Shown in pieces: positions 1 through 14,873 of a stretch of 64,000 bases of DNA. Below the pieces are notes generated by a model. It had not been told where the DNA came from. It ran no database searches and saw only the letters and a program-made list of their open reading frames with translations. The translations under genes and the position numbers were made by a program. Source of the stretch: a virus; the IMG/VR virus record IMGVR_UViG_3300017698_000019, positions 1 through 64,000 of that record. One strand, written 5' to 3'. Every line of letters starts with the position of its first letter. Within the stretch, counting starts at the first letter, position 1.

Positions 1-1
1 C

Positions 2-562
2 TGGAAGGCTCTGGAACGCCATAACAAAGCCGCCGACAAGGCCGCTGCGAAAGAAGCCAAGGCGAAGGCTCCACCCAAGGAGCGTGGTCTGGCGAAATCG
101 GCCGAGGCCAAGACGGTCAAGCGTCCGAACAAGAAAATGTTCTCGACCATTACGAAGACTGGCGAACACGATGGCACTCAGGGCCGGACGCATCGCTGGC
201 CGAACTACAAGGATGGCATGACTATCGTTGACGTGATCGAGACCGAAGGCACCGAGCCGTGGGACGTCTACAATTGGGCGGGCCAAGGCATCATGACCGT
301 GACCGAGCCGACGGACGAAGAGTTCACTCAGCGCAAGGCGGCATGGTACAAGAAGCACGGCCTCACCGACCCTGAGGAAGCCAAGCGTCTGAAAGCCGAA
401 GAGCGCGCGAAAGCGAAAGCTGAACGGGAAGAAGCCGCCGCTGCCAAGAAGGCCGAGCGCGAAGCTGCCAAGGAAGCCAAAGCCAAAGAACGGGCCGAGG
501 CGAAAGCTGCCAAAGAAAAGGCTGCTGCCGACAAAGCCGCTGCGAAGGCCGCTGCTGAATAA
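2..562 (+). CDS. 5'-truncated ORF; protein with Lys/Ala/Glu-rich histone H1-like tails
   Basis: The frame of track ORF 137..562 stays open to the window edge (WKALERHNKAADKAAAKEAKAKAPPKER...). The last ~55 aa are AKAKAEREEAAAAKKAEREAAKEAKAKERAEAKAAKEKAAADKAAAKAAAE. TAATG overlap with the next gene. Confidence 0.5.
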   Translation, partial: WKALERHNKAADKAAAKEAKAKAPPKERGLAKSAEAKTVKRPNKKMFSTITKTGEHDGTQGRTHRWPNYKDGMTIVDVIETEGTEPWDVYNWAGQGIMTVTEPTDEEFTQRKAAWYKKHGLTDPEEAKRLKAEERAKAKAEREEAAAAKKAEREAAKEAKAKERAEAKAAKEKAAADKAAAKAAAE

Positions 563-1473
563 TGGGCCTTGACAGAGCCAATGCGTTCTTCAGCTTTGTT
601 GAGGAACGCGAACAGATCCGTCTCCGAAAGGAGGCGGATTTGCCATATCCCTGGACCGACGACCCGATCCTCAGGGACTACAAATTCACCAATGTTCACC
701 GCCACCATGATCGTACCAGCCGTGAACTGAGAACGCAATTCTACGATAAACATCGTGGATCTTCCTGCAAGACTCTCCTCATGAACGCTGCTACGTTCCG
801 CTATTTCGGAACGTATGAGTTTGCCTCTGCTTTGGGCTGGACAGAGTTCAGAGACATGGATGACAACCATTGGGAATGGGTGAAAGAACTTGCGGAAGAC
901 AGACTGGCAAACAAAGAACGCGTCTTCACAGGCGCATACGTTATCACGAACCAAGGCATCTCCGCCCCAAAGCAAGAAGTCGTGGTTGATTATTTTCTCA
1001 AGGCTCTTCAGAAGGCAGCCTCGGAAATAGCCGGTCTGGCAATCAACACTCAAAGCTGGGAGAAAGTTGCAGATCGTATGCGACTGATCAATGGTTTCGG
1101 AGGCTCTGGCTTCATGACCAAAGAGATCCTCTTGGACACCACCTATACTAAATTCTGGGACAACATCGTCGATTACCCAGAAGACGGGCAGTTCAGTTTC
1201 CCTGCCGATTGGGATAGCTGGACACCTATTGGTCCAGGAGCGAGACGGGGTGCAGCACGGGTCAACGGAGATGATAGTGCCAAGCCTCTCAAAGAAGAAG
1301 CTGCTGGTGATGTCATTGACAATCTGTTGTTCCAGCAAGACTTGTTTCTGCCAAATGAATGGGACACACTTGCGCCTCACGATATCCAATTCCAGCTTTG
1401 TGAGTTCGACAAGTATGAACGTGTTCGCTTGGGTCAAGGACGACCACGGTCTCGCTACAAAGCACCGAAGTAA
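562..1473 (+). CDS. aGPT-Pplase-like DNA base hypermodification protein (alpha-glutamyl/putrescinyl-thymine pyrophosphorylase family, putative)
   Basis: 303 aa. The block FVEEREQIRLRKEADLPYPWTDDPILRDYKFTNVHRHHDRTS matches my recollection of the aGPT-Pplase signature. The gene is adjacent to ThyA-like and glycosyltransferase genes. Needs HMM confirmation. Confidence 0.5.
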   Translation: MGLDRANAFFSFVEEREQIRLRKEADLPYPWTDDPILRDYKFTNVHRHHDRTSRELRTQFYDKHRGSSCKTLLMNAATFRYFGTYEFASALGWTEFRDMDDNHWEWVKELAEDRLANKERVFTGAYVITNQGISAPKQEVVVDYFLKALQKAASEIAGLAINTQSWEKVADRMRLINGFGGSGFMTKEILLDTTYTKFWDNIVDYPEDGQFSFPADWDSWTPIGPGARRGAARVNGDDSAKPLKEEAAGDVIDNLLFQQDLFLPNEWDTLAPHDIQFQLCEFDKYERVRLGQGRPRSRYKAPK

Positions 1474-1498
1474 TCTGGAAGAGGGCGACAATTAGCAC

Positions 1499-1527
1499 TT
1501 GTCTTTTGCGCCCTCTGCCGCTATGCT
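1499..1527 (+). promoter_or_regulatory. sigma70-like promoter (phage cassette type)
   Basis: TTGTCT-17 nt-TATGCT, preceded by AGCAC. About 30 nt upstream of ATG 1558. Confidence 0.5.
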
Positions 1528-1557
1528 GACCTAACATACCCTTTCGGAGATAGCCCC

Positions 1558-2829
1558 ATGAAGATACTCGTCGCACTTCACAAGTGCATGGACCTCGGCG
1601 GTATTATCGACCATACCGAGCAACTCATTGGCGGTCTCCAAGACCTAGGCCATGATGTTCACCTCAAAGAACTCGTATGGGCGTTCAATGCGCCTGCTCA
1701 ACGTAAGACCGCAGACTGGAGCATCGGCCCAAGCGGTATCCCCCATCATCAAGGAAAGGGCTGGAACTTTGACCGGAAAGATCGTATTCCTTATCGTGGT
1801 GGGGCTGCTCTTAGTGGAGCATCACAAATCCTCCAGCAGTACGACCTCATCATTTGGTCTGTGCCAGTTCCAAGCAAAAACAAAGACAATCTCGGTAATG
1901 ATGACTGGCCAGAGTTGTACGACCTTCCAGAGCGCGTTAAGCAGATTGCGTTCGTCCACGATGGGAATGCAGTGAAAGGAGCAGGTCATCTGCTGGCCAT
2001 TCAGGACCGCCTCTCTGGGCTGGCCTGTGTTCACCCCTGCGCCCTCAATGGTGCCGCCTTCGCCGACGTCCCTCGCACAATGGTTGTCAATCCGCAGCTT
2101 AATCCGGTGCGTCCTTACGCCAAGTGGGAACAGAAGTCTCCCGGCTTCGTAAACATGCAGACCTTCAAGGCGTGGAAGCATGTTCATGAACTGGTCGAAG
2201 CAATCCATTACATGCAGCCAAAGGAAGCCGACGAGTTGCGTGAGATTGCTGGCTTGGGCATCGAGTATCGTTACATGACCAGCGAGGACAAGTGCAAGGA
2301 CGCTTATTTCCATGCTGATGGAGAGAAGTTCTGGGACGCTGCTCTCGAAAACGGCATGACACACCATGATTATTGGGACAAGGACCAAGTTGACAATTAT
2401 CTCAATGAAGCCCGTGTCCTTGTCGATCCGTCATGGTCCAACAACTATTCCAAAGTCGGTGGTCACTTCAACCGCGTGGCTGTAGATGCAATGATGCGAG
2501 GCTGTGTAGTCGTAGCGCGGCAGAAAGGGATGGGTTCGGAATTGTTCCAGTCCGGAGAGCATTATATCTCCATCCCTGAAGATGCTGATGCTCAAGAGTA
2601 TGCAGACCTCGTCCAGTATGCCAGCGGCATCGCACCGAAGACAGCGCAGCGCATGATTGATGCGAACCGCGAAATCCTACCCATGTTTGATCGAAAGACT
2701 GTGGCGCAACGTGTCATTGATCTGGCGCATGGTGAGATCGAAGTGGAGGAAGTCCAAGGGACTGCAACCCATGCAATGAAAACCAAAGTCGAAGATATGT
2801 TGTTCGACCATTTCGGAGTTATACTATAA
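1558..2829 (+). CDS. GT-B fold glycosyltransferase (GT4-like), candidate DNA/base glycosyltransferase
   Basis: 423 aa. MKILVALHKCMDLGGIIDHTEQLIGGLQDLGHDV is a typical GT-B N-terminus. C-terminal HFNRVAVDAMMRGCVVVARQKGMGSELFQSGEHY resembles the donor-binding region. Context: between the aGPT-Pplase-like and ThyA-like genes. Confidence 0.6.
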   Translation: MKILVALHKCMDLGGIIDHTEQLIGGLQDLGHDVHLKELVWAFNAPAQRKTADWSIGPSGIPHHQGKGWNFDRKDRIPYRGGAALSGASQILQQYDLIIWSVPVPSKNKDNLGNDDWPELYDLPERVKQIAFVHDGNAVKGAGHLLAIQDRLSGLACVHPCALNGAAFADVPRTMVVNPQLNPVRPYAKWEQKSPGFVNMQTFKAWKHVHELVEAIHYMQPKEADELREIAGLGIEYRYMTSEDKCKDAYFHADGEKFWDAALENGMTHHDYWDKDQVDNYLNEARVLVDPSWSNNYSKVGGHFNRVAVDAMMRGCVVVARQKGMGSELFQSGEHYISIPEDADAQEYADLVQYASGIAPKTAQRMIDANREILPMFDRKTVAQRVIDLAHGEIEVEEVQGTATHAMKTKVEDMLFDHFGVIL

Positions 2830-3827
2830 TGGATGTCATCACAGTTCGCAACGTCTCAGACGCCCTCGTCTTGGGCACGAAGGTTATCAATGATGTCGGG
2901 GTCCGTCGAGACAGCCGCAATGGTCCTGTCAAGGTAATGCCGATGCCAGTCACCACGATGTATGAAAGCCCAAGAGAAAGGGTCATGCTGCATCCTGAAC
3001 GCGACTGCAATCCTTATTTCCACTTCATGGAATGTCTCTGGATGCTGGCAGGTCGTCGCGACGTGGCCTGGATCTCACAGTTCAGCAAGAACATCGGCAA
3101 CTATACTGATGATGGGATCAATTTCCATGGTGCCTACGGTTATCGCTGGCGCAATCATTTCGATGTCGATGGTGGTGTTCTGGATCAACTTGGAACTATC
3201 GCAGCGTTGCTGAAAAAGAACCCTGATGATCGCCGCACTGTCCTTCAAATGTGGGACGCAAATGCTGACCTTGGTCTCGATGGCAAGGACTTCCCTTGCA
3301 ATCTGGTCATCACCTTTCGCATCAACCCCAACGGCAAATTGGACATGACTGTGTTCAATCGCAGTAACGATATGGTCTGGGGTGCTTACGGTGCCAACGC
3401 AGTTCACATGTCATTCCTGCAAGAAGTTATGGCCGCTTGGATCGGTGTGCCTGTCGGCTTCTACTGGCAGATCAGCACGAACTTCCACGCATATCTTGAC
3501 ACTCTGGCCAAGGTGGAACCCTTGCTGCACAAGCCTGATGGGAAGTCACCTTACGAACTAGGTGAGATAGAACCGTTCCCGGTGGTCGGCACTGACATCG
3601 ACACGTGGCATTCCGAACTGAATATGTTCATGGATGAAGGTCCTGTGATGGGATACACTGATCCATTCTTCAAGAAGGTGGCCGTGCCGATGCTACAGTC
3701 GTGGCAAGCCTGGAAGAACAAAGATGCTCCTGACTTCATGGACAGTGCTGTCTACTTCGCAGATCGCATTGCCGCTACCGACTGGCGTCGGGCCTGCATG
3801 GAATGGCTGGAGCGTCGGGACGTATGA
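2829..3827 (+). CDS. ThyA-family pyrimidine C5-methylene transferase (candidate dUMP hydroxymethylase or divergent thymidylate synthase)
   Basis: 332 aa. Motifs: RDCNPYFHFMECLWMLAGR, AYGYRWR, DQL..LKKNPDDRRTVLQMWD, catalytic Cys in DFPCNLVITF, and NRSNDMVWGAYGANAVH. The Asn is retained, implying uracil specificity. Confidence 0.8.
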   Translation: MDVITVRNVSDALVLGTKVINDVGVRRDSRNGPVKVMPMPVTTMYESPRERVMLHPERDCNPYFHFMECLWMLAGRRDVAWISQFSKNIGNYTDDGINFHGAYGYRWRNHFDVDGGVLDQLGTIAALLKKNPDDRRTVLQMWDANADLGLDGKDFPCNLVITFRINPNGKLDMTVFNRSNDMVWGAYGANAVHMSFLQEVMAAWIGVPVGFYWQISTNFHAYLDTLAKVEPLLHKPDGKSPYELGEIEPFPVVGTDIDTWHSELNMFMDEGPVMGYTDPFFKKVAVPMLQSWQAWKNKDAPDFMDSAVYFADRIAATDWRRACMEWLERRDV

Positions 3828-4456
3828 CTGTGGAAACAAGTCCTGAGGACTACTGCGACGTTCACGGTAAATACAAACCCTGTGAAGGTTGTGAAGAGCC
3901 AGCCGTAATCTATCCGATAGATGGCTTGGTGAACAAAGTCAAATTCACAAGGGAGGCAGCGGCGGTTCGTCGCTGTCATACCCTACCGATCATCGGTGAA
4001 TATATCGTCGGTGGTCACTCCTACAACATGCTCTCGATGCTTCGTCTGTTGCATCCAGACCCACCTATCCGCCTCGTTTGGGCTATCCAGGAACACGACG
4101 TGCCTGAACGTCTCACCGGTGATATACCTGCGCCGACCAAGTGGTTCAAGATTGTGGACAAAGGTCATCTAACCCAAGCAGAGATGTCTATCAACAAAGA
4201 AGTCTTCGGATGGGTCGCTGAACTACAGTTGACCGAAGAAGATCTCAAGTGGCTGCGCGGCTTGGATATCTTGGAACTGTATCTGTTCTGTAAAGATCAG
4301 TTGATGCTAGGCAACCAGAATGTTCTTGTGATGAAGGCTCGCATTGAGCGTTTCATCAATCGTGAGAAGCATATGTTTGCGCCAGAAGTTCTGAACTTCT
4401 ACTTCTCCCTCCAAGATCACTCGTGGCATATGTGCCCTGATCTCGGAGACGTCTAA
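3824..4456 (+). CDS. HD-domain phosphohydrolase, YfbR-like 5'-deoxynucleotidase (putative)
   Basis: ATGA overlap with the ThyA-like stop. RCHTLP..GEYIVGGHSYNMLSML and QEHDVPERLTGDIPAPTKWF resemble YfbR H...HD...D motifs. Confidence 0.6.
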   Translation: MTVETSPEDYCDVHGKYKPCEGCEEPAVIYPIDGLVNKVKFTREAAAVRRCHTLPIIGEYIVGGHSYNMLSMLRLLHPDPPIRLVWAIQEHDVPERLTGDIPAPTKWFKIVDKGHLTQAEMSINKEVFGWVAELQLTEEDLKWLRGLDILELYLFCKDQLMLGNQNVLVMKARIERFINREKHMFAPEVLNFYFSLQDHSWHMCPDLGDV

Positions 4457-5343
4457 TGAGCCACGATCGTGATGTCAAATACTGTGAATGTGGTAAGTCC
4501 CTATGGGACGGAGCAACTTGCAATTGCAAGGAATTGAAGATGGAATATATGTCCGGACCTATTGATCGTAAATGCACCTGCGGTCAAGAAGTATTCGTTA
4601 TCGGCAAAATATGGTGCCAACTATGTGAACCAAAGGAAGAACTACCTATGAAAGCGACACAAGTCGGCGGAGACCACTATCAAGCGAACTATCAACATTG
4701 GGATTGGGCTGGTGATGTCCGCCTCGGTTACTACGAGAGCGCGGCTTCCAAGTATGCCTTCCGCTGGTACAAGAAGAACGGCATCGAAGATTTGGACAAA
4801 GCACGGTCTTACCTGCTGAAAGCCAAGGAGATGTTCTTGGAAGGCCGTTGGGACAACCAATGTCTGCACGTTGATAGCTGGCCGCTGGCTCGTGACAAAG
4901 CTGAAAGTATGTTCGCAACCTTCTGCGACGAGGCAACTGTGCCGATGGTCGAGGCTGATTTGTGTCTTGCAATTGCCCAATGGAAGAATGACGTGGACCT
5001 CAGCGTTATCATTGGCCAATTGGGAGCGCATATAGAAGCCGCACAGGCGCAAGTTGATGCTGGCGGCACCCTTGGCCCATTGGCACCCCTAGCCGCGCCA
5101 CAGGCGGCAAAAACAGGGGGTAGCGGACAAGCTGGTGGCACTACCACCCACCCACCCGCATCCAGCGCGTCCGTAGAGCTCGCAATGAAGCAGTTTGGCC
5201 CGTGTCCATGTGGCTGCGGACGTCCTCGCGCCAAGAACCAGAACTATGCGACGCTGGATTGTGCGAAGAATGCTCGCGCTGATGAACTCGGTAAAGGGAC
5301 TAACCACCCTGCTCCTTTCGGATATGTTCCCGGTGATCTATGA
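4456..5343 (+). CDS. DUF3310 (SaV-like) phage protein with N-terminal Cys-rich segment
   Basis: 295 aa. VGGDHYQANYQHWDW...AASKYAFRWYKKNGIEDLDKARSYL is the DUF3310-type block. N-terminus carries CxC/CxxC clusters. The central A/P/G/T-rich linker is encoded by GC-rich repeat copy 5075..5181. Confidence 0.6.
   Translation: MSHDRDVKYCECGKSLWDGATCNCKELKMEYMSGPIDRKCTCGQEVFVIGKIWCQLCEPKEELPMKATQVGGDHYQANYQHWDWAGDVRLGYYESAASKYAFRWYKKNGIEDLDKARSYLLKAKEMFLEGRWDNQCLHVDSWPLARDKAESMFATFCDEATVPMVEADLCLAIAQWKNDVDLSVIIGQLGAHIEAAQAQVDAGGTLGPLAPLAAPQAAKTGGSGQAGGTTTHPPASSASVELAMKQFGPCPCGCGRPRAKNQNYATLDCAKNARADELGKGTNHPAPFGYVPGDL
5075..5181 (-). repeat. GC-rich repeat element copy (core CTCTACGGACGCGCTGG on minus strand), in-frame inside a CDS
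   Basis: 5162..5178 CCAGCGCGTCCGTAGAG is the reverse complement of the 17-mer at 27014..27030. The GC-rich stretch upstream (CCTAGCCGCGCCACAGGCGG...) resembles the copies at 56846..56960 and 45001..45030. Confidence 0.7.
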
Positions 5344-5825
5344 GCAGGTTCGCAACATTTGTGAAATGGCTGGTGACACCCAAGAGAAAAGCTGACTTTC
5401 TCATTGGGCCGAACCCTCATGATCCTTACATGAGGCGATGGTATCTCATTCGTCGGAACAACAAGTTCAACATCTATCTGCATCAGATGCTGCATGATGA
5501 TGACGATCAAGCACCGCACGATCATCCATGGTGGAGCCTATCTCTTTGCCTGTCTGGTGTGATCAAGGAATATGAGACACCGGCCGAACCGAACTTCCTT
5601 GGGTCCAAGTTGCGGATCAACATTATTAAGAAGGGCATGTGGAAATGGCGAGGTAAAGAATACATTCACCGCTTGGTTCTTCCAGAGGGTGAAGCCTGGA
5701 CTTTGTTCATTACGGGACCGAAAGCGAGAGTTTGGGGTTTTCATTGCCCCAAGGGCTTTGTAGTATGGCATAAGTTCTTGGACAGCCGTGCCAAGACTGG
5801 TCGTGGTTGCGGGGAAATGGAATGA
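5340..5825 (+). CDS. hypothetical protein
   Basis: 161 aa. ATGA overlap upstream. Conserved-looking block YLHQMLHDDDDQAPHDHPWW. Function unknown. Confidence 0.6.
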   Translation: MSRFATFVKWLVTPKRKADFLIGPNPHDPYMRRWYLIRRNNKFNIYLHQMLHDDDDQAPHDHPWWSLSLCLSGVIKEYETPAEPNFLGSKLRINIIKKGMWKWRGKEYIHRLVLPEGEAWTLFITGPKARVWGFHCPKGFVVWHKFLDSRAKTGRGCGEME

Positions 5826-6220
5826 TCATTAAGGGATGGGCCTCGGTCTGGGGTGAATGCGACAGTCACAGTGATATAACAGTGAAAGGAAGCTTTAAGA
5901 AAGATCTCAAGAAGTTCACTTATACAAGACCGATGCTTCTGCACCATGAGAAATCACAAATCATCGGCCGCTGGGACTTGATTAAAGAGAAGAAGTATGG
6001 TCTTTGGTGTGAAGGCACAGTGCTAGACGATGACGCTATCTTCTGGATCAAAGAACACTGCCTCTCTGGACTATCTATCGGCTACGCTGGCCGAAGCGAA
6101 GACAGAAAACGCGGTCTACGCAGATTGAAGCGGCTTGAGTTGGAAGAGATCTCTGTGACATCAATCCCCGCTAACAGGGCGGCAAGAATTATGGAGATCA
6201 TTGATGGCAAAGCAGACTAA
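5822..6220 (+). CDS. HK97-family prohead protease-like domain protein (Peptidase S78/U35-like), orphan location
   Basis: ATG 5822 overlaps the upstream stop (ATGA). IKGWASVWGECDSHSDITVKGSFKK...PMLLHHEKSQIIGRW...KYGLWCEG...LSGLSIGY...LEEISVTSIPANRAARI follows the S78 pattern, including the H and S positions. Confidence 0.6.
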   Translation: MIIKGWASVWGECDSHSDITVKGSFKKDLKKFTYTRPMLLHHEKSQIIGRWDLIKEKKYGLWCEGTVLDDDAIFWIKEHCLSGLSIGYAGRSEDRKRGLRRLKRLELEEISVTSIPANRAARIMEIIDGKAD

Positions 6221-8279
6221 ACAAGCCCATGCAAAGAGTCTCAATGATGGATCAGCAGCAATTCAAATGTCGATGTTCACCCCAGAGGCAGACTGGAGAC
6301 CACCGTCTATTGGAGATCTTCCTTCTTGGGCTGGAGCAAAGCGCATCGCGATTGATGCCGAAACTAGAGATCCCTCCCTTGGTAATGGGTTGGGAACAGG
6401 CCAAATGCGTGACGGTTATACAGTCGGATGGGCCTTCGCCATTGACGGGGGTCCGAAACACTACCTCCCATTCCGCCATGAAGGCGGCGATAATCTGGAC
6501 CAAGAGCAGGTCCTCCGCTACCTCAGATCAAACATTAAAAACTTTACTGGAGAATATGTCGGAGCAAATCTCGCGTATGATGTCGACTACGGTTATAACG
6601 ACGGATTTGATTGGCATCGTGACGCAAAGTTTAGAGACATCCAGATTGCCGATCCCCTGCTCTATGAACTCCATTGGTCATACTCTTTGGCAAACATCGG
6701 TGAACGATGTGGCGTCGAGGCTAAAGATGAAACCCTATTGGTGGAAGCTGCTAAAGCCTATGGACTTGACGCCAAGAAAGGTCTCTGGAGACTACCGGCT
6801 CGGTTCGTTGGTAAGTACGGGGAGCAAGATGTCACTTCGCCGCTCGAAATTCTCAAAATCCAAGAGGAAAAGATCGAAAAAGCGGGTCTCCGTGAAATCT
6901 GGGATCTCGAGACGGACGTCCTCCCTGTTCTCGTAAGGATGCGTCGCCGTGGTGTGCGTATTGACTTTGATAAGCTAGACTCCATTGAAAAGTGGGCCTT
7001 GGAAGAAGAACAGAAGTCTATTGATCTGGTGAAGCGTGAGACTGGCGTCTCCATTGGGCTAGACAACATCTGGAAACCGAACGTCATTGCACCCGCTCTC
7101 GAAGACATCGGTATGCGGCTCAATAAGACTTCCACTGGCGCACCACAGATTGATAAGGCTTTGCTCGGAGGCGCAGACCATCCAGTGCCAGAGGCAATCC
7201 TTCATGCTCGCAAGGTCAACAAGATTAGGACAACCTTCGCTGCATCAATTCATAAGTATGCAGTCAACGGTAAGATCCACTGTTCATTCAAGCAAATCGC
7301 AGCAGAAGATGAACAAGGCAGGCAGAAAGGTGTCCGGTATGGTAGACTATCAGCCGTTGATCCTAACTTGCAACAACAACCAAGCCCTGATCGTGATCCA
7401 ATAATTGCTGGTGAATGGCGCAAGATCTTCATCCCTGAAGAAGGAGCAATCTGGGGCTGCAATGACTACTCACAGCAGGAACCACGATGGACAACACACT
7501 TCGCCGCCCTTATGGATTTCCCAAAAGCGAGAGAAGCAGCCAAGCGTTATCGTGATGACCCAAGCACAGATAACCATGAGATGATGACACGTATCGTGAA
7601 CGGCGATGCAGCAGTCGACAAATGGATGGAGATGGACCCAAAGCAATTCAAGTTGGAGCGAGGGTTCTCCAAGGCGATCTACCTTGGGCTATGCTACGGA
7701 GAAGGCGGCGCTAAACTCTGCATGGACATCGGTAAGCCTACTCGCTGGGCGCATATCTCAGGATGGGGCAAGAAACGCCGCATTGATTACTACGAAGACA
7801 AGCAAGAAGCGATGGCCGCACGTATGGAAGCCGGAACAGGATATTACAAGGAGATGGCCGGTGAGGAGGGACAGGAGATCCTGGATAAGTTCGACAGAGA
7901 GGCTCCGTTTGTTGGCGCTCTGGCTAAGGCAGCTACGGCGAGAGCGGAGGGCAAGGGCTTTGTCAAGACTATACTTAATCGTCACTTGCATTTTGAGCAG
8001 CGTGATGATGGCTCTTATGATTTTACCCATAAAGCACTCAATCGAGTTATTCAAGGTTCTTCTGCAGATCAGACTAAACTTGCCTTGGTAGAAATCGATA
8101 AAACAGATGCTTATCTGCAATTGCAGGTTCATGATGAGACAGATGGCAGCTACGGTTCAGTCGCAGAAGCCGTTGCAGTTGGAGACATCATGAGAGACTG
8201 CATTCTTACTCGCTGCAAACCTTTGGTCCCGTTCAAAGTTGACACCGAGACAGGACCTAGTTGGGGAGAAATCAAATAA
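6204..8279 (+). CDS. family A DNA polymerase with 3'-5' exonuclease domain
   Basis: Exo motif IAIDAETRD. Motif A NDYSQQEPR, DPNLQQQP, motif B RGFSKAIYLGLCYGEG, motif C LQVHDE. ATG 6204 lies one codon after TTG 6201. Confidence 0.9.
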   Translation: MAKQTKQAHAKSLNDGSAAIQMSMFTPEADWRPPSIGDLPSWAGAKRIAIDAETRDPSLGNGLGTGQMRDGYTVGWAFAIDGGPKHYLPFRHEGGDNLDQEQVLRYLRSNIKNFTGEYVGANLAYDVDYGYNDGFDWHRDAKFRDIQIADPLLYELHWSYSLANIGERCGVEAKDETLLVEAAKAYGLDAKKGLWRLPARFVGKYGEQDVTSPLEILKIQEEKIEKAGLREIWDLETDVLPVLVRMRRRGVRIDFDKLDSIEKWALEEEQKSIDLVKRETGVSIGLDNIWKPNVIAPALEDIGMRLNKTSTGAPQIDKALLGGADHPVPEAILHARKVNKIRTTFAASIHKYAVNGKIHCSFKQIAAEDEQGRQKGVRYGRLSAVDPNLQQQPSPDRDPIIAGEWRKIFIPEEGAIWGCNDYSQQEPRWTTHFAALMDFPKAREAAKRYRDDPSTDNHEMMTRIVNGDAAVDKWMEMDPKQFKLERGFSKAIYLGLCYGEGGAKLCMDIGKPTRWAHISGWGKKRRIDYYEDKQEAMAARMEAGTGYYKEMAGEEGQEILDKFDREAPFVGALAKAATARAEGKGFVKTILNRHLHFEQRDDGSYDFTHKALNRVIQGSSADQTKLALVEIDKTDAYLQLQVHDETDGSYGSVAEAVAVGDIMRDCILTRCKPLVPFKVDTETGPSWGEIK

Positions 8280-8350
8280 TCGGAATATCCTAAAATTTTG
8301 CGGCGCTCGCGTCATGTTAGATCTGGATTAGTAGTCAAAAGAGGGAAGTT

Positions 8351-8536
8351 ATGACTAAATCAAACATAGTGGACTTAAACGCCACTTTGCAGGCTGAGAC
8401 CGAAATGGCTCGCTGCTTCAAATTTGAGGAGGATGGTCCAGATGTATGGATACCAAAATCCCAACACGAATGGGATGAACACGATTGGGTCGTCTCAGTA
8501 CCTGAAAACGTAGCTATTGAGAAAGGCTTGGTATGA
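8351..8536 (+). CDS. hypothetical protein
   Basis: 61 aa. GAGGGAAG RBS 5 nt upstream. ATGA coupling to the next gene. Confidence 0.5.
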   Translation: MTKSNIVDLNATLQAETEMARCFKFEEDGPDVWIPKSQHEWDEHDWVVSVPENVAIEKGLV

Positions 8537-8832
8537 CACTTCAGAAAGAGGTCCTTGATTGGGCCGAAGGGGAGTTCGGTGTAAATCCTGAACTCAAAAT
8601 CGCAATTCGCGGTAACAAAGAGATGGCAGAACTGGTTTCCACCATTTCCAACGGCATGGGCAAGAAATCTATCGGTGAAGAATGCGCCGACGTGGCCTTC
8701 TTCCTCATTCAGATCTGTGAGAAGAATGGCTTTGATCTCATGGACGAAGTTGCCAAGAAATTGGTGATCAACCGGAAGCGTGAATGGGGCATCGCCTCAG
8801 ACGGCTCCCATCAACATATCGAGGGAACATAA
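8533..8832 (+). CDS. MazG-like nucleoside triphosphate pyrophosphohydrolase
   Basis: 99 aa all-alpha. EMAELV...IGEECADVAFFLIQICEKNGFDLMDEVAKKLVINRKREW matches the MazG/NTP-PPase EExxD...K..N..R pattern. Confidence 0.7.
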   Translation: MTLQKEVLDWAEGEFGVNPELKIAIRGNKEMAELVSTISNGMGKKSIGEECADVAFFLIQICEKNGFDLMDEVAKKLVINRKREWGIASDGSHQHIEGT

Positions 8833-8834
8833 TC

Positions 8835-9374
8835 ATGAAACATTGTATGCTGGACTTGGAGACTTTCGGCACTGGCGCAGGCTGCGTTATCCGCTCCATC
8901 GGCGCAGTCGTTTTCGACCCCAGAACGCCTTCCTTGGGCAAAGAGTTCTACAAGAACATCACCGAAGAAGATCAAATCGAATTGGGTGCTTTCAAAGACC
9001 CCAGCACGGTCTCATGGTGGGAAAAGCAAGGTCAGTCTGCTAAAGACGTCCTAGAGCCTGACCAAGTCAGCTTGAAGATGGCGGTCAATGGCTTTGCAAA
9101 CTTCTGGAAAGACAACCGCTTGAAGTTCGTATGGTCCCAAGGTGCAAACTTCGACAGTGTCTTGTGGGAAGCGACCTGCAAATTTGTCGATGTCAAGCCG
9201 CCGTGGCAGTTCTACAACACCCGTGACACTCGGACTGTCTACGATGCGGCTGGTCTCAACACCAAGACCATTCCTCGTCAGGGTATCTATCACTACGCCC
9301 TGGACGACTGCAAGCATCAGGTCCGGTGTGTCTACAAGTCCTACATGATGATTGACAAAGTGGAGAAGCGTTAA
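8835..9374 (+). CDS. DEDD-family 3'-5' exonuclease (Rv2179c-like)
   Basis: ATG 8835 follows the GAGGGA RBS. MLDLETFGT (ExoI), ANFDSVLW (ExoII) and YHYALDDCKHQ (ExoIII H-x4-D). Confidence 0.7.
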   Translation: MKHCMLDLETFGTGAGCVIRSIGAVVFDPRTPSLGKEFYKNITEEDQIELGAFKDPSTVSWWEKQGQSAKDVLEPDQVSLKMAVNGFANFWKDNRLKFVWSQGANFDSVLWEATCKFVDVKPPWQFYNTRDTRTVYDAAGLNTKTIPRQGIYHYALDDCKHQVRCVYKSYMMIDKVEKR

Positions 9375-9829
9375 TGTCCATTCATGATATGTTCATGGGA
9401 CACGCCGTTCACGCCAGCAAGTTCAGCCCTGATCCCTCCACGAAGGTGGGATCGGTGGTTGTCCTTGAAGGCAAGGTGTTCTCAGTTGGTTGGAACCAGT
9501 TTCCTACAGGTGTCGCCGAGACCGAGGAGCGGTGGGAAGATCGTGCCCAAAAGTATCCAAGGGTGATCCACGCAGAAGCTGATGCGTTGGTCGCAGCCGC
9601 GAGGATGATGCGGCGAGAGCGGCCTCTTCTTGGGTTCGAGGACGCCACCCTCTACACCACTGAATTTCCCTGCTGTGCTTGCTGCGGATTGATTATCCAA
9701 CATGGCATCAAGAAAGTTGTCTCACAAGATCTGGCCAGTGATTACGCTGAAAGATGGGCGAAAGAGATTGAGATCTCCAAGTCAATGTTCAGTGAGGCGG
9801 GAGTGGAATTAGAGGTAATTCCCCGATAA
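9374..9829 (+). CDS. dCMP deaminase (zinc-dependent cytidine/deoxycytidylate deaminase fold)
   Basis: HAEADAL and PCCACCGLI zinc-binding motifs. 151 aa. TAATG coupling. Confidence 0.85.
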   Translation: MSIHDMFMGHAVHASKFSPDPSTKVGSVVVLEGKVFSVGWNQFPTGVAETEERWEDRAQKYPRVIHAEADALVAAARMMRRERPLLGFEDATLYTTEFPCCACCGLIIQHGIKKVVSQDLASDYAERWAKEIEISKSMFSEAGVELEVIPR

Positions 9830-9836
9830 ACAGAAC

Positions 9837-9865
9837 TTGTCAATTGCCAGTCAGCCAGCTAGTAT
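9837..9865 (+). promoter_or_regulatory. sigma70-like promoter (phage cassette type)
   Basis: CAGAAC-TTGTCA-17 nt-TAGTAT. This makes the track TTG start at 9837 unlikely. Confidence 0.5.
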
Positions 9866-9878
9866 AAGGGTTCACGAT

Positions 9879-10301
9879 ATGTCCGAAGCTTCAAGCCGTT
9901 CAAATCTAGTTAAGAAACTCAAGCCTCTGGATGCAGTGGCAATTGAGAGCCCGTCTACTGGACTTGGAATTCCGGACGTCAATTTCATAGGCGGGTGGAT
10001 AGAATGCAAGTGGATGAAGTATTGGCCCAAGACAGCAGATGTGAAGCCAGTTCGGTTCAGTCATCCCCTCTCGAAACAACAACAAGTGTGGCTCTGGAGA
10101 AGAGAGCATCGCGGCGGACTAGCCCTAGTCTGCGCTCAGGTGAGCAAGTCGTGGTTCTTCTGGTCCGGAAAACACATTAAGGAAAATGATCTATGGGACA
10201 ATATGACGAGACCCCAGATGATAGCGGAAGCGGAACTCTACTTCCCGAACGGCCTGGAAACGGAGAAACTCTTGAACTATCTGAGGGAGAACGGGCGCTA
10301 G
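9879..10301 (+). CDS. PD-(D/E)xK nuclease, VRR-NUC-like (putative)
   Basis: First ATG after the promoter. GIPDVNFIGGWIECKW is a PD...E.K motif. ~140 aa. Confidence 0.5.
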   Translation: MSEASSRSNLVKKLKPLDAVAIESPSTGLGIPDVNFIGGWIECKWMKYWPKTADVKPVRFSHPLSKQQQVWLWRREHRGGLALVCAQVSKSWFFWSGKHIKENDLWDNMTRPQMIAEAELYFPNGLETEKLLNYLRENGR

Positions 10302-10591
10302 TATATCGTCGTCGCATGGGTCTCAGCCAGAAAGCTATGGCCAAGAGTTTCGGTATAACTCGCCGTATCTATAGCGAGAAAGAAGCAAACGGCACGATTA
10401 CTCTTCCCGGCTTCATGGTTGTGGTTGAGCCGATTACAGGTGCCGAGCAGTGTCTTATCTGGCGTCGCCGTTCAGGCTGGACACAGCAGGCTTGCGCTGA
10501 TCTTATGGGGATCACGCGCTACTGGTACAATTTGATGGAAAACGGCAAAGCGCCTTCTGATAAATTGGAGGCTTTCTGGAATGAAGGGTGA
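10193..10591 (+). CDS. tandem helix-turn-helix (XRE-like) DNA-binding protein
   Basis: Two repeats: LSEGERALVYRRRMGLSQKAMAKSFGITRRIYSEKEANG and ITGAEQCLIWRRRSGWTQQACADLMGITRYWYNLMENG. ATG 10193 is the only in-frame start that keeps helix 1, so it overlaps the upstream gene by 109 nt. Confidence 0.55.
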   Translation: MGQYDETPDDSGSGTLLPERPGNGETLELSEGERALVYRRRMGLSQKAMAKSFGITRRIYSEKEANGTITLPGFMVVVEPITGAEQCLIWRRRSGWTQQACADLMGITRYWYNLMENGKAPSDKLEAFWNEG

Positions 10592-13007
10592 GTCTCAAAG
10601 AGCAATTGACTTCCTAAGGAAGTTTTATCCTAAGGGACCTTGGCTCCTTACTGCGATCCAGACAGACCGCAAAGCAATCGACACAAAACCATTCGGCCCT
10701 AAGTCTGAAGAGGAATGCCTTTTCTGGCTTGAGAAATATAACGGCGAGCGGAACATCTACTTTACGGTGAACCAACCGAACCTCGCTTTCCTGAAATCAG
10801 ATAAAGTCAAGAAGCCGAACAAAGAAGATATGTTCGAAGCCCACTGGCTACACGTTGATGTCGATCCAGAAGAGGCTCCGGCAGATGAGACTGATATTGA
10901 CGGTTTCCTTAAAATGGAACGTGAGCGTGTCCTAAGCGTACTCACTGATCGCCTGCCAAAAGGTATCGAGAAGCCGACGGTTATCCTATTCTCAGGCGGT
11001 GGCTATCAAGCCTTCTGGAAGCTGGACAAACCTGTTAAGATTGACGGGACCGAAGCTGCGTGGACTGAGTTCGAACTCTATAACAAGCGTCTAGAGCAAG
11101 TTTTCGGAGGCGATCACTGCCACAACGTAGACCGCATCATGCGTCTTCCTGGGACAGTCAATGTTCCTGATGCAAAGAAGATTAAAAAAGGTCGCAAGAA
11201 GGAACTATCTCGCCTTCTCGAGTTTGATACCAAAAATGTCTATAGTCTTGAGCAATTCAAGAAAGCCCAAGCGGTGCAGACATCTGCTCCCGGACGCCAT
11301 GATGGCGGCGAATACGGTATCAAGGTTGAAATTCCCGGTAATGTGGAACGCATTCAAGACCTCAGCGAACTGGACGTGTGGGACGTCCCTGACAGAGTCA
11401 AGGTTATTATCGCCCAAGGGCAACACCCTGATCAACCGAAAGAAGGCGACAATTCCCGCTCAGCATGGCTTTTTGACTGTGTCTGTGCGCTGGCTCGCTG
11501 CAATGTCCCCGACGGTGTCATATTCGCTATCTTGACAGACCCTGAATGGGGTATTGCAAGCAGCGTCGTAGAACTGAAAGGCGGCGCTGAGAAATACGCA
11601 ATCCGCCAGATCAAGCGAGCCAAAGAATACAGTGAAGATCCACACCTTACAATGATGAACGACCGCCACGCTATCATTGGTAATATCGGAGGCAAGTGTC
11701 GCGTCATTGAGGAGATCGAGGATGATGTTCTGCATAGGAGCCGCATCACGATGTCCAGCTTTGAGGATATCCGAAACCGATACGGAAATATTCAGATCCA
11801 AATTGGTTCGACCGATAAAGGTGATCCAGTGCATGTTCCCTTGGGCAAGTATTGGATCAACCACCGCTTGCGTCGCCAATACGATACGATGAAGTTCATG
11901 CCACAGGGCGACCAACCTGGAGTCTACAACTTGTGGCGTGGATTTAATGTAGAACCTATACCCGGAGACTGCTCCATATATCTCGAACACCTAAGAGAAA
12001 ATGTGTGCAGCGGGGTTGAAGAACATTATGATTATCTCATCAAATGGATGGCGCGTGTCGTACAGACACCAGCAAGTCCAGGTGAAGTTGCCATTGTTCT
12101 CAGGGGCGGAAAGGGTACTGGTAAAGGCTATTTTGCGAGAACTTTCGGACGTCTGTTTGGCCGACATCATCTTCACGTCGCCAATCCATCCCACCTTGTC
12201 GGAAACTTCAACGCTCACCTTAGAGATGTTATCAGCTTGTTTGCCGATGAAGCCTTCTTTGCTGGAGATAAACGTCATGAGTCTGTGCTTAAGATGCTCA
12301 TCACTGAGGACAGTATACCGATTGAAGCCAAAGGCATCGACACAGAGCCGTATCCAAACTATGTTCACCTCATCATGGCCTCAAACGACCCGCATGTCAT
12401 TAGGGCAACTGGAGATGAAAGGCGTTACTTTGTTCTAGACATGGGTGAGAACCGTAAGCAGGATGCAGAGTTCTTTTCCTCACTCACAAAACAAATGGAT
12501 AATGGTGGATATGAAGCATTGCTCTACCATCTCCAAAACGTGGATATAAGTGAGTTCCAAGTCCGGAACGTGCCACAGACTGATGCACTGCAAGAGCAGA
12601 AACTCATGTCAATGGGCGTTGAAGAGGAATGGTGGTATCACAAACTGCATGACGGTCGTGTCTTGGAAAACCACGATACATGGATCCGTGACGTGCCAAC
12701 AGACGCTCTGGAAAAAGACTATACGAACTATGCGGATAAATGGAAGTTTGCTCGGAGAGGTAACGCAACTCTCTTGGGTCGTTTCCTTAACAGAGTTGTT
12801 CCGCATATCAACAAAATGCAAAAGCGCGTAACAGTTGAAGAGTATGATCAAGAGACTGGGCAGCCACACAGAACCAAGAAACGAATGTATCATTATGACC
12901 TTGGTGATCTGGAGAAATGTCGTGCATCCTGGGACAAAGTCTATGGAGAGCGAGAATGGCCAACACCTGTTGAACTTGATCTCGGAGAAATAGAGGTTCC
13001 ATTCTGA
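10581..13007 (+). CDS. primase-polymerase / SF3 (P4/D5-type) helicase fusion
   Basis: 808 aa. Prim-pol-like N-terminus (IYFTVNQP, HVDVD, IMRLPGTVN). Walker A VLRGGKGTGKGYF and Walker B-like ISLFADEA. C-terminus ends in the acidic tip LDLGEIEVPF. Confidence 0.85.
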   Translation: MKGESQRAIDFLRKFYPKGPWLLTAIQTDRKAIDTKPFGPKSEEECLFWLEKYNGERNIYFTVNQPNLAFLKSDKVKKPNKEDMFEAHWLHVDVDPEEAPADETDIDGFLKMERERVLSVLTDRLPKGIEKPTVILFSGGGYQAFWKLDKPVKIDGTEAAWTEFELYNKRLEQVFGGDHCHNVDRIMRLPGTVNVPDAKKIKKGRKKELSRLLEFDTKNVYSLEQFKKAQAVQTSAPGRHDGGEYGIKVEIPGNVERIQDLSELDVWDVPDRVKVIIAQGQHPDQPKEGDNSRSAWLFDCVCALARCNVPDGVIFAILTDPEWGIASSVVELKGGAEKYAIRQIKRAKEYSEDPHLTMMNDRHAIIGNIGGKCRVIEEIEDDVLHRSRITMSSFEDIRNRYGNIQIQIGSTDKGDPVHVPLGKYWINHRLRRQYDTMKFMPQGDQPGVYNLWRGFNVEPIPGDCSIYLEHLRENVCSGVEEHYDYLIKWMARVVQTPASPGEVAIVLRGGKGTGKGYFARTFGRLFGRHHLHVANPSHLVGNFNAHLRDVISLFADEAFFAGDKRHESVLKMLITEDSIPIEAKGIDTEPYPNYVHLIMASNDPHVIRATGDERRYFVLDMGENRKQDAEFFSSLTKQMDNGGYEALLYHLQNVDISEFQVRNVPQTDALQEQKLMSMGVEEEWWYHKLHDGRVLENHDTWIRDVPTDALEKDYTNYADKWKFARRGNATLLGRFLNRVVPHINKMQKRVTVEEYDQETGQPHRTKKRMYHYDLGDLEKCRASWDKVYGEREWPTPVELDLGEIEVPF

Positions 13008-13318
13008 TGGCTTGTGAAGCACCATGTTTTGATTGTCCTTACCTAAGAGGAAGCGACAAACTAAAAATCGCCGACAATGTCATATTCGATTTCGTGTTCG
13101 AACACCACACCGAAGACGGAGTCGGTGGCGGCTACTCTCCTCATATCTGTCCAGAACAAGAAGATGTTTGCTTTGGACAATTGCAGATGATAGCCAATGG
13201 ATTGAAAACAGGACTGGACCCATTTTCGGAAATGGGTGAGATAGTTTACTCCATGTCTCCCAACACAAAGGACTATTTCCATGGCCCTTGGGAGTATATG
13301 GCCCATCATGAGGCTTAG
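13007..13318 (+). CDS. hypothetical Cys-containing protein
   Basis: 103 aa. TGATG coupling. Contains the repeat AAAAATCGCCGACA at 13063..13076. Confidence 0.55.
   Translation: MACEAPCFDCPYLRGSDKLKIADNVIFDFVFEHHTEDGVGGGYSPHICPEQEDVCFGQLQMIANGLKTGLDPFSEMGEIVYSMSPNTKDYFHGPWEYMAHHEA
13063..13094 (+). repeat. AAAAATCGCCGACA-family repeat (copy inside CDS)
   Basis: AAAAATCGCCGACAATGTCATATTCGATTTCG is ~85% identical to 14835..14868. The 14-mer is identical at 14835 and 29186. Confidence 0.75.
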
Positions 13319-13895: not shown

Positions 13896-14836
13896 AACCT
13901 ATGCTGGCTGGAAAGTATGATCCAGTAAAGGTAGAGAAGAAACTGCCTTTGCTGGGTCAACTGAAATACGATGGTATCCGAGTATTCATTCGAGATGGCG
14001 TCGCATATACTCGGAGTATAAAACCTGTTCGCTCAACAGAACTTCAATCATGGGTTGCTTGGAACAAAGACTTCCTGGAAGGCATGGATGGGGAAATAAT
14101 CTGTGGAGACCCAACGGCACAAGGATGCTTCCAAAGAACTAGCAGTTTCGTAATGAGTTACGATAAACTGGATATATTCACATTCTACGTGTTCGACAAG
14201 TGGGACGAGCCTTCCGTATTCACTGATCGTTTCGCTGTTGTTGAAGAGGTTGCTGGTCAATGGATTATGAATAGTCATGATCAACCTCGTATGGTTGCAG
14301 CAGATACTCGAGAAATGTTAACAATGGAAGATGTGAACGCATTTCATGAGGAAATGATTGCCCAAGGGCAGGAAGGTATCATCCTGCGAGATCCTCATGC
14401 TTACTACAAATTTGGACGAGGCTCGCCTGTGAAGTGTGAGTGTATCAAAATGAAAGAAGGTGGCTGGGTTGACACAGAATGCAAAATCCTCGACTTCCAC
14501 GAACAGATGCACAACGCCAATGAAGCCACGCTTGACAATCTCGGTTACACGGAACGCTCAGGGCATAAAGAGAACCTTATCGGAAAAGACACTCTCGGCG
14601 CTATTGAAGTTAGCGGAAGCTTCGAGGATGGAACTCCTTTCACGTGCAGAGTCGGAACAGGACTAGACGACGAAATCCGGCAAAAAGTCTGGGATCGCCG
14701 ACAAGACTATATTGATAAAGTCGTAAAAATGAAATATTTCACCGTCGGCATCAAAGATAAACCGAGATTTCCAACCTTCTTGGGTTTCCGTGACAAGGAT
14801 GACATGGACGCAGAGCAGTTGGATCTGTTTTCGTAA
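13892..14836 (+). CDS. ATP-dependent DNA ligase
   Basis: Motif I GQLKYDGIRV (adenylation Lys), motif IV EGIILRD, motif V-like VVKMKYF. 314 aa (T7-size). Confidence 0.85.
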   Translation: MKPMLAGKYDPVKVEKKLPLLGQLKYDGIRVFIRDGVAYTRSIKPVRSTELQSWVAWNKDFLEGMDGEIICGDPTAQGCFQRTSSFVMSYDKLDIFTFYVFDKWDEPSVFTDRFAVVEEVAGQWIMNSHDQPRMVAADTREMLTMEDVNAFHEEMIAQGQEGIILRDPHAYYKFGRGSPVKCECIKMKEGGWVDTECKILDFHEQMHNANEATLDNLGYTERSGHKENLIGKDTLGAIEVSGSFEDGTPFTCRVGTGLDDEIRQKVWDRRQDYIDKVVKMKYFTVGIKDKPRFPTFLGFRDKDDMDAEQLDLFS

Positions 14837-14873
14837 AAATCGCCGACATAGTCATATTGATTTTCGATCTGTA
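14835..14873 (+). repeat. AAAAATCGCCGACA-family repeat (intergenic copy)
   Basis: AAAAATCGCCGACATAGTCATATTGATTTTCGATCTGTAGG aligns with 13063..13094 and 29186..29226, including CGATCTGT. Confidence 0.75.

Follow-up and report, generated by a model that had tools for sequence, protein, structure and literature searches.

The stretch of viral DNA analyzed here (the window: 64,000 nt, positions 1 to 64,000 of IMG/VR virus record IMGVR_UViG_3300017698_000019) carries near its 5′ end, at 562-4456, a cluster of four genes that rather probably specifies a two-stage hypermodification of thymidine. In the first stage, dT would give way to 5-hydroxymethyl-deoxyuridine (5-hmdU, hmdU) before replication. 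In the second stage, the hydroxymethyl group would be O-glycosylated with neither a 5-hmdU DNA kinase nor an amino-acid:DNA transferase (AADT). A sequence-only reading of the window had proposed a thymidine replacement or hypermodification cluster with a possibly sugar-containing product. The gene identities, the orthology of the hydroxymethylase, and the conservation of the cassette support the cluster, and a sugar is still what the gene context and the fold of the glycosyltransferase (GT) best suggest. The four open reading frames (ORFs) lie where that reading had placed them, and the ORF calls and junction sequences confirm their translational coupling:

562-1473, + strand: Pplase1, 303 aa, PF18723
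1558-2829, + strand: GT-B glycosyltransferase, 423 aa, Glycos_transf_1
2829-3827, + strand: predicted ThyA-family dUMP hydroxymethylase (DUHMT), 332 aa, Thymidylat_synt
3824-4456 (ORF also from 3803), + strand: putative YfbR-like HD 5′-deoxynucleotidase, 210 aa (217 aa from 3803)

With hmmscan, the product of 2829..3827 matches Pfam Thymidylat_synt at 3.3e-24; the match stops at profile position 230 of 266, and the C-terminal segment of thymidylate synthases (TS) is unmatched in the protein. It also matches phrog_5131 (7.5e-124) and is 52-54% identical, over 99% of the length, to the annotated deoxyuridylate hydroxymethyltransferase of M6-like phages, in which the DNA modification is made from 5-hmdU (PMC5889632, PMC8989533). 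The best relative in the PDB is the CMP hydroxymethylase MilA (1.3e-18). In alignments to TS and MilA, the catalytic Cys is present (DFPCNL) and an Asn stands where the cytosine-specific MilA has an Asp. Residues Cys157, Asn190, and Asp181 are invariant in 101/101 homologs adjoining Pplase1, in agreement with the earlier assignment of a ThyA-family enzyme with a catalytic Cys and a uracil-specifying Asn. Judged by these relationships, the protein is a predicted dUMP hydroxymethylase. No second ThyA or ThyX gene is present among the + strand ORFs of at least 55 aa of the window, the set covered by the Pfam scan. The substrate would be dUMP because this is the only ThyA-family gene found, because of the DUHMT orthology, and because the Cys and the Asn are invariant.

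The identification of the second gene as a GT-B glycosyltransferase also stands. Its product matches Pfam Glycos_transf_1 (4.7e-9, 36.5 bits, cut-off 26.4), and its AlphaFold2 (AF2) model (pLDDT 93) has the two-Rossmann GT-B fold. Foldseek relates the model to HepE (3e-13), MshA, PimA, and BshA, with target-normalized TM-scores (TMt) up to 0.69 (HepE, PimA, BshA). The T4 alpha-glucosyltransferase (AGT) is as near as any GT4 enzyme (2e-11, query-normalized TM-score, TMq, 0.57-0.62). On this model, the protein is a GT4-like retaining GT-B and, in its gene context, a candidate 5-hmdU DNA glycosyltransferase. The family is small, with 230 clusters among 5.8 billion clustered proteins; for many of the 230, the longest listed contigs are of ∼60-67 kb, the size of a phage genome. 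We did not observe the GT by tblastn in 50,697 cultured-phage records, and positions 1-10,000 of the window give no megablast match in 50,697 phage records. In the window, we found no sugar-nucleotide genes.

The order Pplase1-GT-ThyA-HD-DUF3310-PolA occurs in 24/24 IMG/VR GT loci, with GT identities of 48-88%, and the 6 kb to each side contain neither a kinase nor an AADT in these 24 loci. From Pplase1 to the primase, the gene order matches that of AN14 (M6 species), Epa43, and PhiJL001; the phage groups with Mesyanzhinovviridae-like phages. The strongest argument for a sugar on the hydroxymethyl base is that two unrelated GT families have been recruited to the same position: in PhiJL001, the GT-B is replaced by a TET-associated glycosyltransferase (TAGT).

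The sequence-only reading had found no P-loop 5-hmdU DNA kinase, and profile scans, tblastn, and the genes outside the window all agree. The Pfam models for this kinase (PF18748, HMUDK_HMUD1) and for AADT (PF18724, "ADDT") have no match among the + strand ORFs of at least 55 aa in the window; neither do pyridoxal-phosphate (PLP) enzymes, radical S-adenosylmethionine (SAM) enzymes, or Nmad5. The same families are absent from the three genes outside the window, read on contig L004. With the M6-like kinase and AADT as tblastn queries against the window, the best E is 0.39 (kinase alone, above 1.9). Walker A motifs in real genes of the window are restricted to the terminase and a RecD-like helicase. 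These negatives are meaningful because the same two Pfam models recognize the M6-like and Epa43 proteins (M6-like gp51 at 1.7e-46).

On the other hand, the lack of a kinase beside Pplase1, which had been taken as unusual, is common and not exceptional. A wider survey took in 80 further IMG/VR loci that contain Pplase1 relatives, each with 8 kb of sequence to either side. In almost all of these, Pplase1 is followed by ThyA; a kinase is present in only 14, 10 of the 14 with an AADT. A glycosyltransferase is found in 16/80 loci (10 TAGT and 6 GT-B, the latter 39-41% identical to the GT of the window). Loci without kinase, TAGT, or GT-B number 49/80, and in 41 of those 49 a class I SAM methyltransferase (MTase; Methyltransf_23/11) stands immediately upstream of Pplase1. 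The 41 MTase loci include L037, L040, L045-L047, L049, L054-L058, L060-L062, L064, and L068-L069, and further L074, L076, L078-L081, L083, L085-L097, and others. From their gene content, the MTase-Pplase1-ThyA loci may constitute a third, methyl-type family of thymidine modification, for example with 5-methoxymethyl-dU. The constant unit is Pplase1 with the hydroxymethylase; kinase, GT, or methyltransferase are interchangeable partners. A cultured phage with the MTase variant was sought: in Stenotrophomonas phage AXL3, a distant MTase homolog adjoins a TS, but its neighbor AXL3_29 is a P-loop protein and not Pplase1, and the phage was rejected.

An inserted FkbM O-methyltransferase (Methyltransf_21, ∼1e-13) separates Pplase1 from the GT in L027 and in at least three of the six GT-B loci with a distant GT:

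L027, 5327-6004: FkbM O-methyltransferase
L038, 8816-9460: FkbM O-methyltransferase
L041, 1523-2167: FkbM O-methyltransferase
L042, 970-1662: FkbM O-methyltransferase

The insertion suggests tailoring of the glycan, with a methylated sugar in those lineages.

In cultured phages, the Pplase1/ThyA-type counts per host genus are 160/162 for Salmonella, 71/74 for Pseudomonas, 62/63 for Vibrio, and 44/44 for Klebsiella. Among Bacillus phage records, 35 have the ThyA type and only 6 have Pplase1. The gene is absent in SPO1 (PMC5889632), and the Bacillus surplus of the ThyA type would fit hmdU-only, SPO1-like phages without Pplase1.

The product of 562..1473 scores above the curated hmmscan threshold for Pfam PF18723 (E 2.2e-34, 119.5 bits, cut-off 25; residues 7-290 aligned to profile positions 5-276 of 281) and matches phrog_2396 at 2.4e-45. 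PF18723 (HMUDK_hel) is now named "5-hmdU DNA kinase, helical domain" in Pfam and was formerly aGPT-Pplase clade 1; GenBank names of the M6-like gene vary between "aGPT-Pplase1 domain-containing protein" and "5-hmdU DNA kinase helical domain-containing protein." Both family signatures are present, the N-terminal PWTxDPIL..[YR]F[TC]N and the C-terminal LCE[FW]DKY[ED]R. The N-terminal motif PYPWTDDPILRDYKFTNVHRHHDRTS is common to M6 gp55 and PhiJL001 gp19, and the overall identity to M6 ORF055/gp55, PhiJL001 gp19, and Epa43 is 28-31%. The aGPT-Pplase assignment of the sequence-only reading is therefore correct at the family level, by the PF18723 match and the N-terminal motif, but the protein is of clade 1 and not of the characterized clade 2 (AADT); it has no PF18724 match at E up to 0.1. 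Iyer, Aravind, and colleagues reportedly gave the aGPT-Pplase family its name and placed clade 1 and AADT in one superfamily. To our knowledge, the function of clade 1 has gone unexplained since that naming in 2013, and the literature searched reports no activity for the clade 1 family. Clade 2 (AADT, PF18724) is an amino-acid:DNA transferase that needs 5-phosphomethyl-dU (5-PmdU) from the P-loop kinase (PMC8989533, PMC11472151). The rule that known aGPT-Pplase pathways require a kinase thus holds for clade 2 but not for clade 1, since M6 gp55 is dispensable in the in vitro reconstitution, group transfer included (PMC8989533).

The AF2 model of Pplase1 (pLDDT 94) is all-alpha. In BFVD, Foldseek retrieves the SP10 gp186, PhiW-14, and phiRSL1 homologs (TMq 0.72-0.76, E 4e-10 to 4e-9). 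The SP10 match falls in the C-terminal half of gp186, in which a Pplase1 domain is fused to a kinase (PMC5889632). Endonuclease III is a weaker match. Against the PDB, nothing is significant (best E 1.4), so that a DNA-glycosylase or AADT fold for Pplase1 is unconfirmed by that search. Fusions of Pplase1 with a GT or MTase were not seen in ten long family members scanned with Pfam. Protein P0350 (1045 aa) joins a PF18723 domain to ankyrin repeats and a C1-like domain and is eukaryote-like; several other PF18723 members of 400-960 aa have extra regions without a Pfam match.

Pplase1 could itself be the group-transfer enzyme, Cys280 attacking C6 of unphosphorylated 5-hmdU, expelling water, and adding a nucleophile. 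The GT would then glycosylate the appended group or compete for hmdU, and the final base would exceed an O-glycoside in complexity. Residue Cys280 is invariant in Pplase1, in the motif LCEFDKYER. In MAFFT alignments, it falls over the nucleophilic Cys of AADT (ETVLC; Cys247 in PUGT) and F184 over Trp146, respectively the catalytic and the base-stacking residue of AADT (PMC11472151). An AADT-domain viral protein appears in the BFVD search, marginally (TMq 0.53, probability 1.0), and a GFG..F/W motif is the only local match by hhalign. However, hhalign of Pplase1 profiles with AADT is not significant (probability 0.45% and 1.7%), and the AADT structures 8z2m and 25qc, both present in the PDB, were missed by the Foldseek search of it. 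The metal-binding Glu-Thr of AADT (E243 and T244 in PUGT) is Gln-Phe in the Pplase1 subclade of the window, and group transfer proceeds in vitro without M6 gp55 (PMC8989533). In addition, 14 core residues (including F184, E188, C280, E281, and D283) are invariant whether the neighbor is a kinase, GT-B, TAGT, or methyltransferase, unlike what is expected of a pocket with a varying co-substrate. We hold a transferase role for Pplase1 to be unlikely. A tie between the E276Q/H277F replacements and GT association was rejected; they are lineage-specific, and Glu-His is retained in the TAGT loci as well as in the six distant GT-B loci.

Because the core residues are invariant whatever the partner, a constant function on hmdU DNA is indicated for Pplase1, and not a partner-specific transfer. 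The pocket of Pplase1 with the invariant F184 and C280 is probably where 5-hmdU in DNA is bound. Kinase, GT, and methyltransferase partners would all act on the same hydroxyl oxygen. Since they share this target, and since SP10 fuses the Pplase1 domain to a kinase, the gene associations suggest a protein that recognizes, presents, or activates 5-hmdU, which is the role we favor. More speculatively, Pplase1 would regenerate thymine from unmodified hmdU, which also fits the distribution. Hypermodifying phages contain T and the hypermodified base, not hmdU; SPO1 keeps hmdU and has no Pplase1 gene. Our broadest proposal, a tentative one and on balance doubtful, is that PF18723 serves hypermodifying phages universally as the enzyme or adaptor for 5-hmdU in DNA, independent of phosphorylation and not an appendage of the kinase pathway. 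It would either flip and activate hmdU for whichever O-transferase the neighboring gene encodes or regenerate thymine from unmodified hmdU. If so, the probably marine clade of the window carries a previously unseen alpha-glycosyl-hmdU base and the MTase-Pplase1-ThyA sister clades carry a base of the 5-methoxymethyl-dU type.

The GT could also act off DNA, for example on a phage protein or on a glycan of the host envelope, with DNA that carries only 5-hmdU or regenerated T. Its closest structures act on small molecules, lipids, or polysaccharides, and JGI labels its homologs "glycosyltransferase involved in cell wall biosynthesis." Against this stand the fixed place of the gene between Pplase1 and the hydroxymethylase, with a TAATG overlap, and the occupation of that slot by unrelated TAGT enzymes in PhiJL001 and other loci. 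The gene also belongs to the early operon for replication and nucleotide metabolism, at a distance from the genes for structure and lysis. An off-DNA acceptor thus appears quite improbable.

Further genes lie downstream from the hydroxymethylase and HD genes:

4456-5343, + strand: DUF3310 protein, T7 gp1.7-related, 295 aa, phrog_236 and phrog_1689
5340-5825, + strand: cupin-like protein, phrog_4786
5807-6220: Peptidase_S78 ORF, 137 aa, Pfam E 2.6e-16
6201-8279, + strand: family A DNA polymerase (PolA), Pfam DNA_pol_A 9e-36
8533-8832, + strand: possible MazG-like NTP pyrophosphatase, weak, below the Pfam cut-off
9374-9829, + strand: dCMP deaminase, Pfam dCMP_cyt_deam_1 1.6e-19, phrog_174 1.3e-37

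The HD protein has sub-threshold Pfam matches (HD_3 and YfbR-like, ∼4e-4) and an NCBIfam 5′-deoxynucleotidase match below the cut-off (4e-5). It aligns with YfbR (PDB 2paq, 8.4e-6) at H98-D99, E102, and D155, with H72, read from the sequence, as candidate first His. The PDB alignment bears out the YfbR-like assignment of the sequence-only reading, with profile scores below their cut-offs. Syntenic HD genes occur in AN14 (YfbR-like, 1.3e-8) and PhiJL001 (gp25). The protein is a candidate dTMP (dNMP) phosphatase that would keep dT out of the pool. Its start is most likely at 3824, not 3803, because of the ATGA overlap at 3824-3827 and because the same start is called on L004.

The dCMP deaminase was correctly named earlier (Pfam 1.6e-19); the nucleotide-pool logic of that reading stands in this respect, but its list lacked the gp1.7-like DUF3310 candidate kinase at 4456-5343. 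The DUF3310 protein matches phrog_236 (2.7e-11) and phrog_1689 (9e-7), both "nucleotide kinase" in PHROG, and Pfam DUF3310 (4.7e-4). DUF3310 has been linked to the kinase activity of T7 gp1.7 (PMC10700055), and the gene is syntenic in M6-like phages, Epa43, and PhiJL001; the protein is a candidate (hm)dUMP kinase. With 295 aa, it is about twice as long as its PhiJL001 counterpart (142 aa), with CxxC-rich N- and C-terminal segments and an Ala/Gly/Pro-rich linker. The cupin-like protein matches phrog_4786 ("cysteine dioxygenase") at 1e-42 with no Pfam match; its gene is a variable member of the operon, found only in some related loci (L008, L019). PDB sequence searches with the DUF3310 and cupin-like proteins returned nothing. 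PolA, which would have to incorporate hmdUTP, falls in the PhiJL001-like group; its identity is 43% with gp28 of PhiJL001 and 48% with the polymerases of AN14 and Epa43. The MazG-like assignment of 8533-8832 is weakly supported, with Pfam MazG-like at E 0.024 and MazG at 0.068, both below cut-off; the best match is phrog_9147, of unknown function (3e-13), with pyrophosphatase phrogs at 2e-3 to 5e-3.

Several points weigh against a kinase-free glycosylation of 5-hmdU. The canonical E-x7-E motif of GT4 enzymes is missing from the GT, where the positions read G302...D310 (GGHFNRVAVD) with G302 invariant, and the GT fold leaves DNA and non-DNA acceptors undistinguished. The invariant Cys of Pplase1 is catalyst-like and, were Pplase1 itself a transferase, the final base might be other than a plain O-glycoside. 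Both the HD and the MazG assignment are weak, and the Pfam scan covers + strand ORFs of at least 55 aa. Lastly, the enlarged DUF3310/gp1.7-like protein could be a non-P-loop kinase of 5-hmdU in DNA, which would make the pathway kinase-dependent. T7 gp1.7-type kinases lack P-loops (Tran et al., cited in PMC10700055). The protein exceeds its PhiJL001 counterpart by Cys-rich segments, and its gene is coupled to the HD gene. However, a role at the nucleotide level fits better because M6-like and Epa43 genomes have DUF3310 in the same position together with a P-loop DNA kinase for 5-hmdU (5-HMUDK), and no AADT was found to use a phosphorylated base; a DUF3310 DNA kinase is accordingly very improbable.

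Equally hard to credit is an ordinary TS or a dCMP hydroxymethylase at 2829-3827, in plain nucleotide metabolism or in a T-even-like system of glucosyl-hydroxymethylcytosine (hmC): Pfam and NCBIfam do say "thymidylate synthase" only, and T-even phages likewise combine a ThyA-family hydroxymethylase, glycosyltransferases, and a dCMP deaminase, but the NCBIfam TS equivalogs are all far below cut-off (70 bits vs. 327), the best PDB relative is a hydroxymethylase, the base-specifying residue is Asn, not Asp, in 101/101 homologs, the identity is 52% to the DUHMT of phages shown to build their DNA through 5-hmdU, and the link to Pplase1, a marker of hmdU-hypermodifying phages, is obligate.

In the two-stage pathway that we prefer, the first stage is proposed from orthology. 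The dCMP deaminase would make dUMP, and the ThyA-family enzyme would hydroxymethylate it to 5-hm-dUMP, which the gp1.7-like DUF3310 kinase and the host NDP kinase would raise to hmdUTP. The YfbR-like HD nucleotidase, perhaps with the MazG-like protein, would drain dTMP and dTTP, and PolA would thereby build DNA with 5-hmdU for dT, the replacement being complete or partial. In the second stage, suggested by gene context and fold, the GT would use a host NDP-sugar to glycosylate hmdU in DNA at its 5-hydroxymethyl oxygen, with Pplase1 assisting. No phosphorylated intermediate, kinase, or AADT would take part, and the product would be alpha-O-glycosyl-hmdU, a phage counterpart of base J. The benefit would be resistance to host restriction and other DNA-targeting defenses.

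The genome is that of an uncultured, probably marine tailed phage, with every credible gene of the window on the + strand; terminase, portal, capsid, tape-measure, and tail genes accompany a replication module. The window is part of a 66,259-bp JGI contig that encodes the exact 562-1473 product, with ∼2.26 kb outside. This stretch, read on the identical Logan contig L004, holds what remains of the RecD-like helicase gene, a gene for a ribonucleotide reductase, and the initial 97 codons of the gene for a 238-aa protein. Two genes are thus cut by the window ends:

1..562, + strand: 238-aa Lys/Ala-rich protein, 3′ part (window ORF 137-562 is an internal start)
62787-64000, + strand: RecD-like helicase, Walker A at 62874, running off the 3′ end of the window

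L004 9285-10001 encodes the 238-aa protein, the last 141 aa of which are identical to window 137-562; it has no Pfam match. A homolog lies directly upstream of Pplase1 in 22/24 GT loci; in L009 and L010, the locus starts ∼100 bases before Pplase1. Stop/start overlaps of the TAATG type occur at 562, 2829, and 4456, and of the ATGA type at 3824-3827 and 5340-5343. The sole separated junction is Pplase1/GT, with an 84-nt gap and GGAG upstream of the GT ATG. In 1-10,500, there is no + strand terminator-like site and no excess of promoter-like sites over shuffle expectation. A tRNA scan found no tRNAs.

Elsewhere in the window, the Peptidase_S78 ORF 5807-6220 (HK97-type prohead protease family) sits inside the replication operon and overlaps the PolA start; it is kept in L011, L012, and L028, and the head module has no recognized protease. 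A 33-nt direct repeat, TAAAAATCGCCGACA..GTCATATT, occurs at 13062-13094 and 14834-14866 around the ligase gene (85% identity), with a third, weaker copy at 11500-11532, and may be a regulatory or promoter element. Between ∼25000 and 31500, there are many short or overlapping ORFs of odd composition (Arg/Ser/Pro-rich) without Pfam matches, and gene calls are uncertain.

Thymidine hypermodifications are a major phage escape from restriction and DNA-targeting defenses and a source of DNA-labeling enzymes. All pathways known to us that have been characterized after 5-hmdU incorporation go through a DNA kinase and an amino-acid:DNA transferase. The cassette points to a shorter, kinase-free route in which 5-hmdU would receive the sugar directly; the clade that has it, of uncultured and apparently marine phages, is sizeable. 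The core of Pplase1 and hydroxymethylase with swappable partners makes the function of the clade 1 "pyrophosphorylase" experimentally approachable. The main value of the cassette is that it offers something concrete on which both a kinase-free sugar modification of thymidine and the Pplase1 family can be tested. Co-occurring ThyS and glycosyltransferases have been noted, at the level of a survey, in viromes (bioRxiv 10.1101/2023.12.21.572611); the literature searched contains no description of a Pplase1-GT-DUHMT cassette or of glycosylated hmdU in a Mesyanzhinovviridae-like phage.

Among known systems, the M6/YuA-like and PaMx11/Ab18/Epa5-like phages (Mesyanzhinovviridae) share with the window the order Pplase1 (gp55), DUHMT, HD, DUF3310, PolA, dCMP deaminase, and primase. 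The M6-like DUHMT is 52% identical to that of the window and the M6-like Pplase1 ∼28%. Upstream of Pplase1, the M6-like phages also have AADT, PLP, and radical-SAM enzymes with the P-loop 5-HMUDK, and downstream from it Nmad5; the window has none of these, and its GT-B gene occupies the position of Nmad5. The AADTs (M6 gp51, ViI gp247, PaMx11 gp46/PUGT) and Pplase1 possibly have an equivalent Cys helix and an aromatic residue in the GFG..W/F motif, but AADTs have Glu-Thr metal ligands (Gln-Phe here) and depend on kinase-made 5-PmdU.

PhiJL001 (a Keylargovirus phage of Alphaproteobacteria) resembles the window in Pplase1 (gp19), DUHMT (gp24), HD (gp25), DUF3310 (gp26), PolA, and dCMP deaminase. 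In the GT slot, gp22 is a TAGT (PF20691, 2.7e-53), unrelated in sequence to the GT-B; unlike the window, PhiJL001 keeps Nmad5. No kinase or AADT homolog was found in its first 50 kb, which take in all of its non-tail genes. The literature searched, to which neither the PhiJL001 genome paper nor Iyer et al. 2013 belongs, contains no description of its DNA chemistry. Just upstream of its thymidine-modification genes, PhiJL001 (L001) gp16 (6659-7237) has a dATP/dGTP diphosphohydrolase N-terminal domain (PF18909, 1e-22).

The logic of T4 AGT and glucosyl-hmC is similar, with a ThyA-family hydroxymethylase before replication and then a GT-B acting on the hydroxymethyl group in DNA. In T4, however, the base is of the cytosine type, whereas here it would be of the uracil type (Asn, not Asp); T4 has no Pplase1 counterpart, and no sequence similarity between the GT of the window and T4 AGT is detectable. 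The predicted product is closest in kind to base J of kinetoplastids (beta-D-glucosyl-hydroxymethyluracil), likewise an O-glycosylated 5-hydroxymethyluracil (hmU) in DNA. In base J, hmU is made on DNA by the JBP dioxygenases, and the fold of the glucosyltransferase JGT is GT-A (bioRxiv 10.1101/2023.12.21.572611). Here, hmU would instead arrive via the nucleotide pool and be glycosylated by a retaining GT-B and, because the enzyme is retaining, an alpha linkage would be expected.

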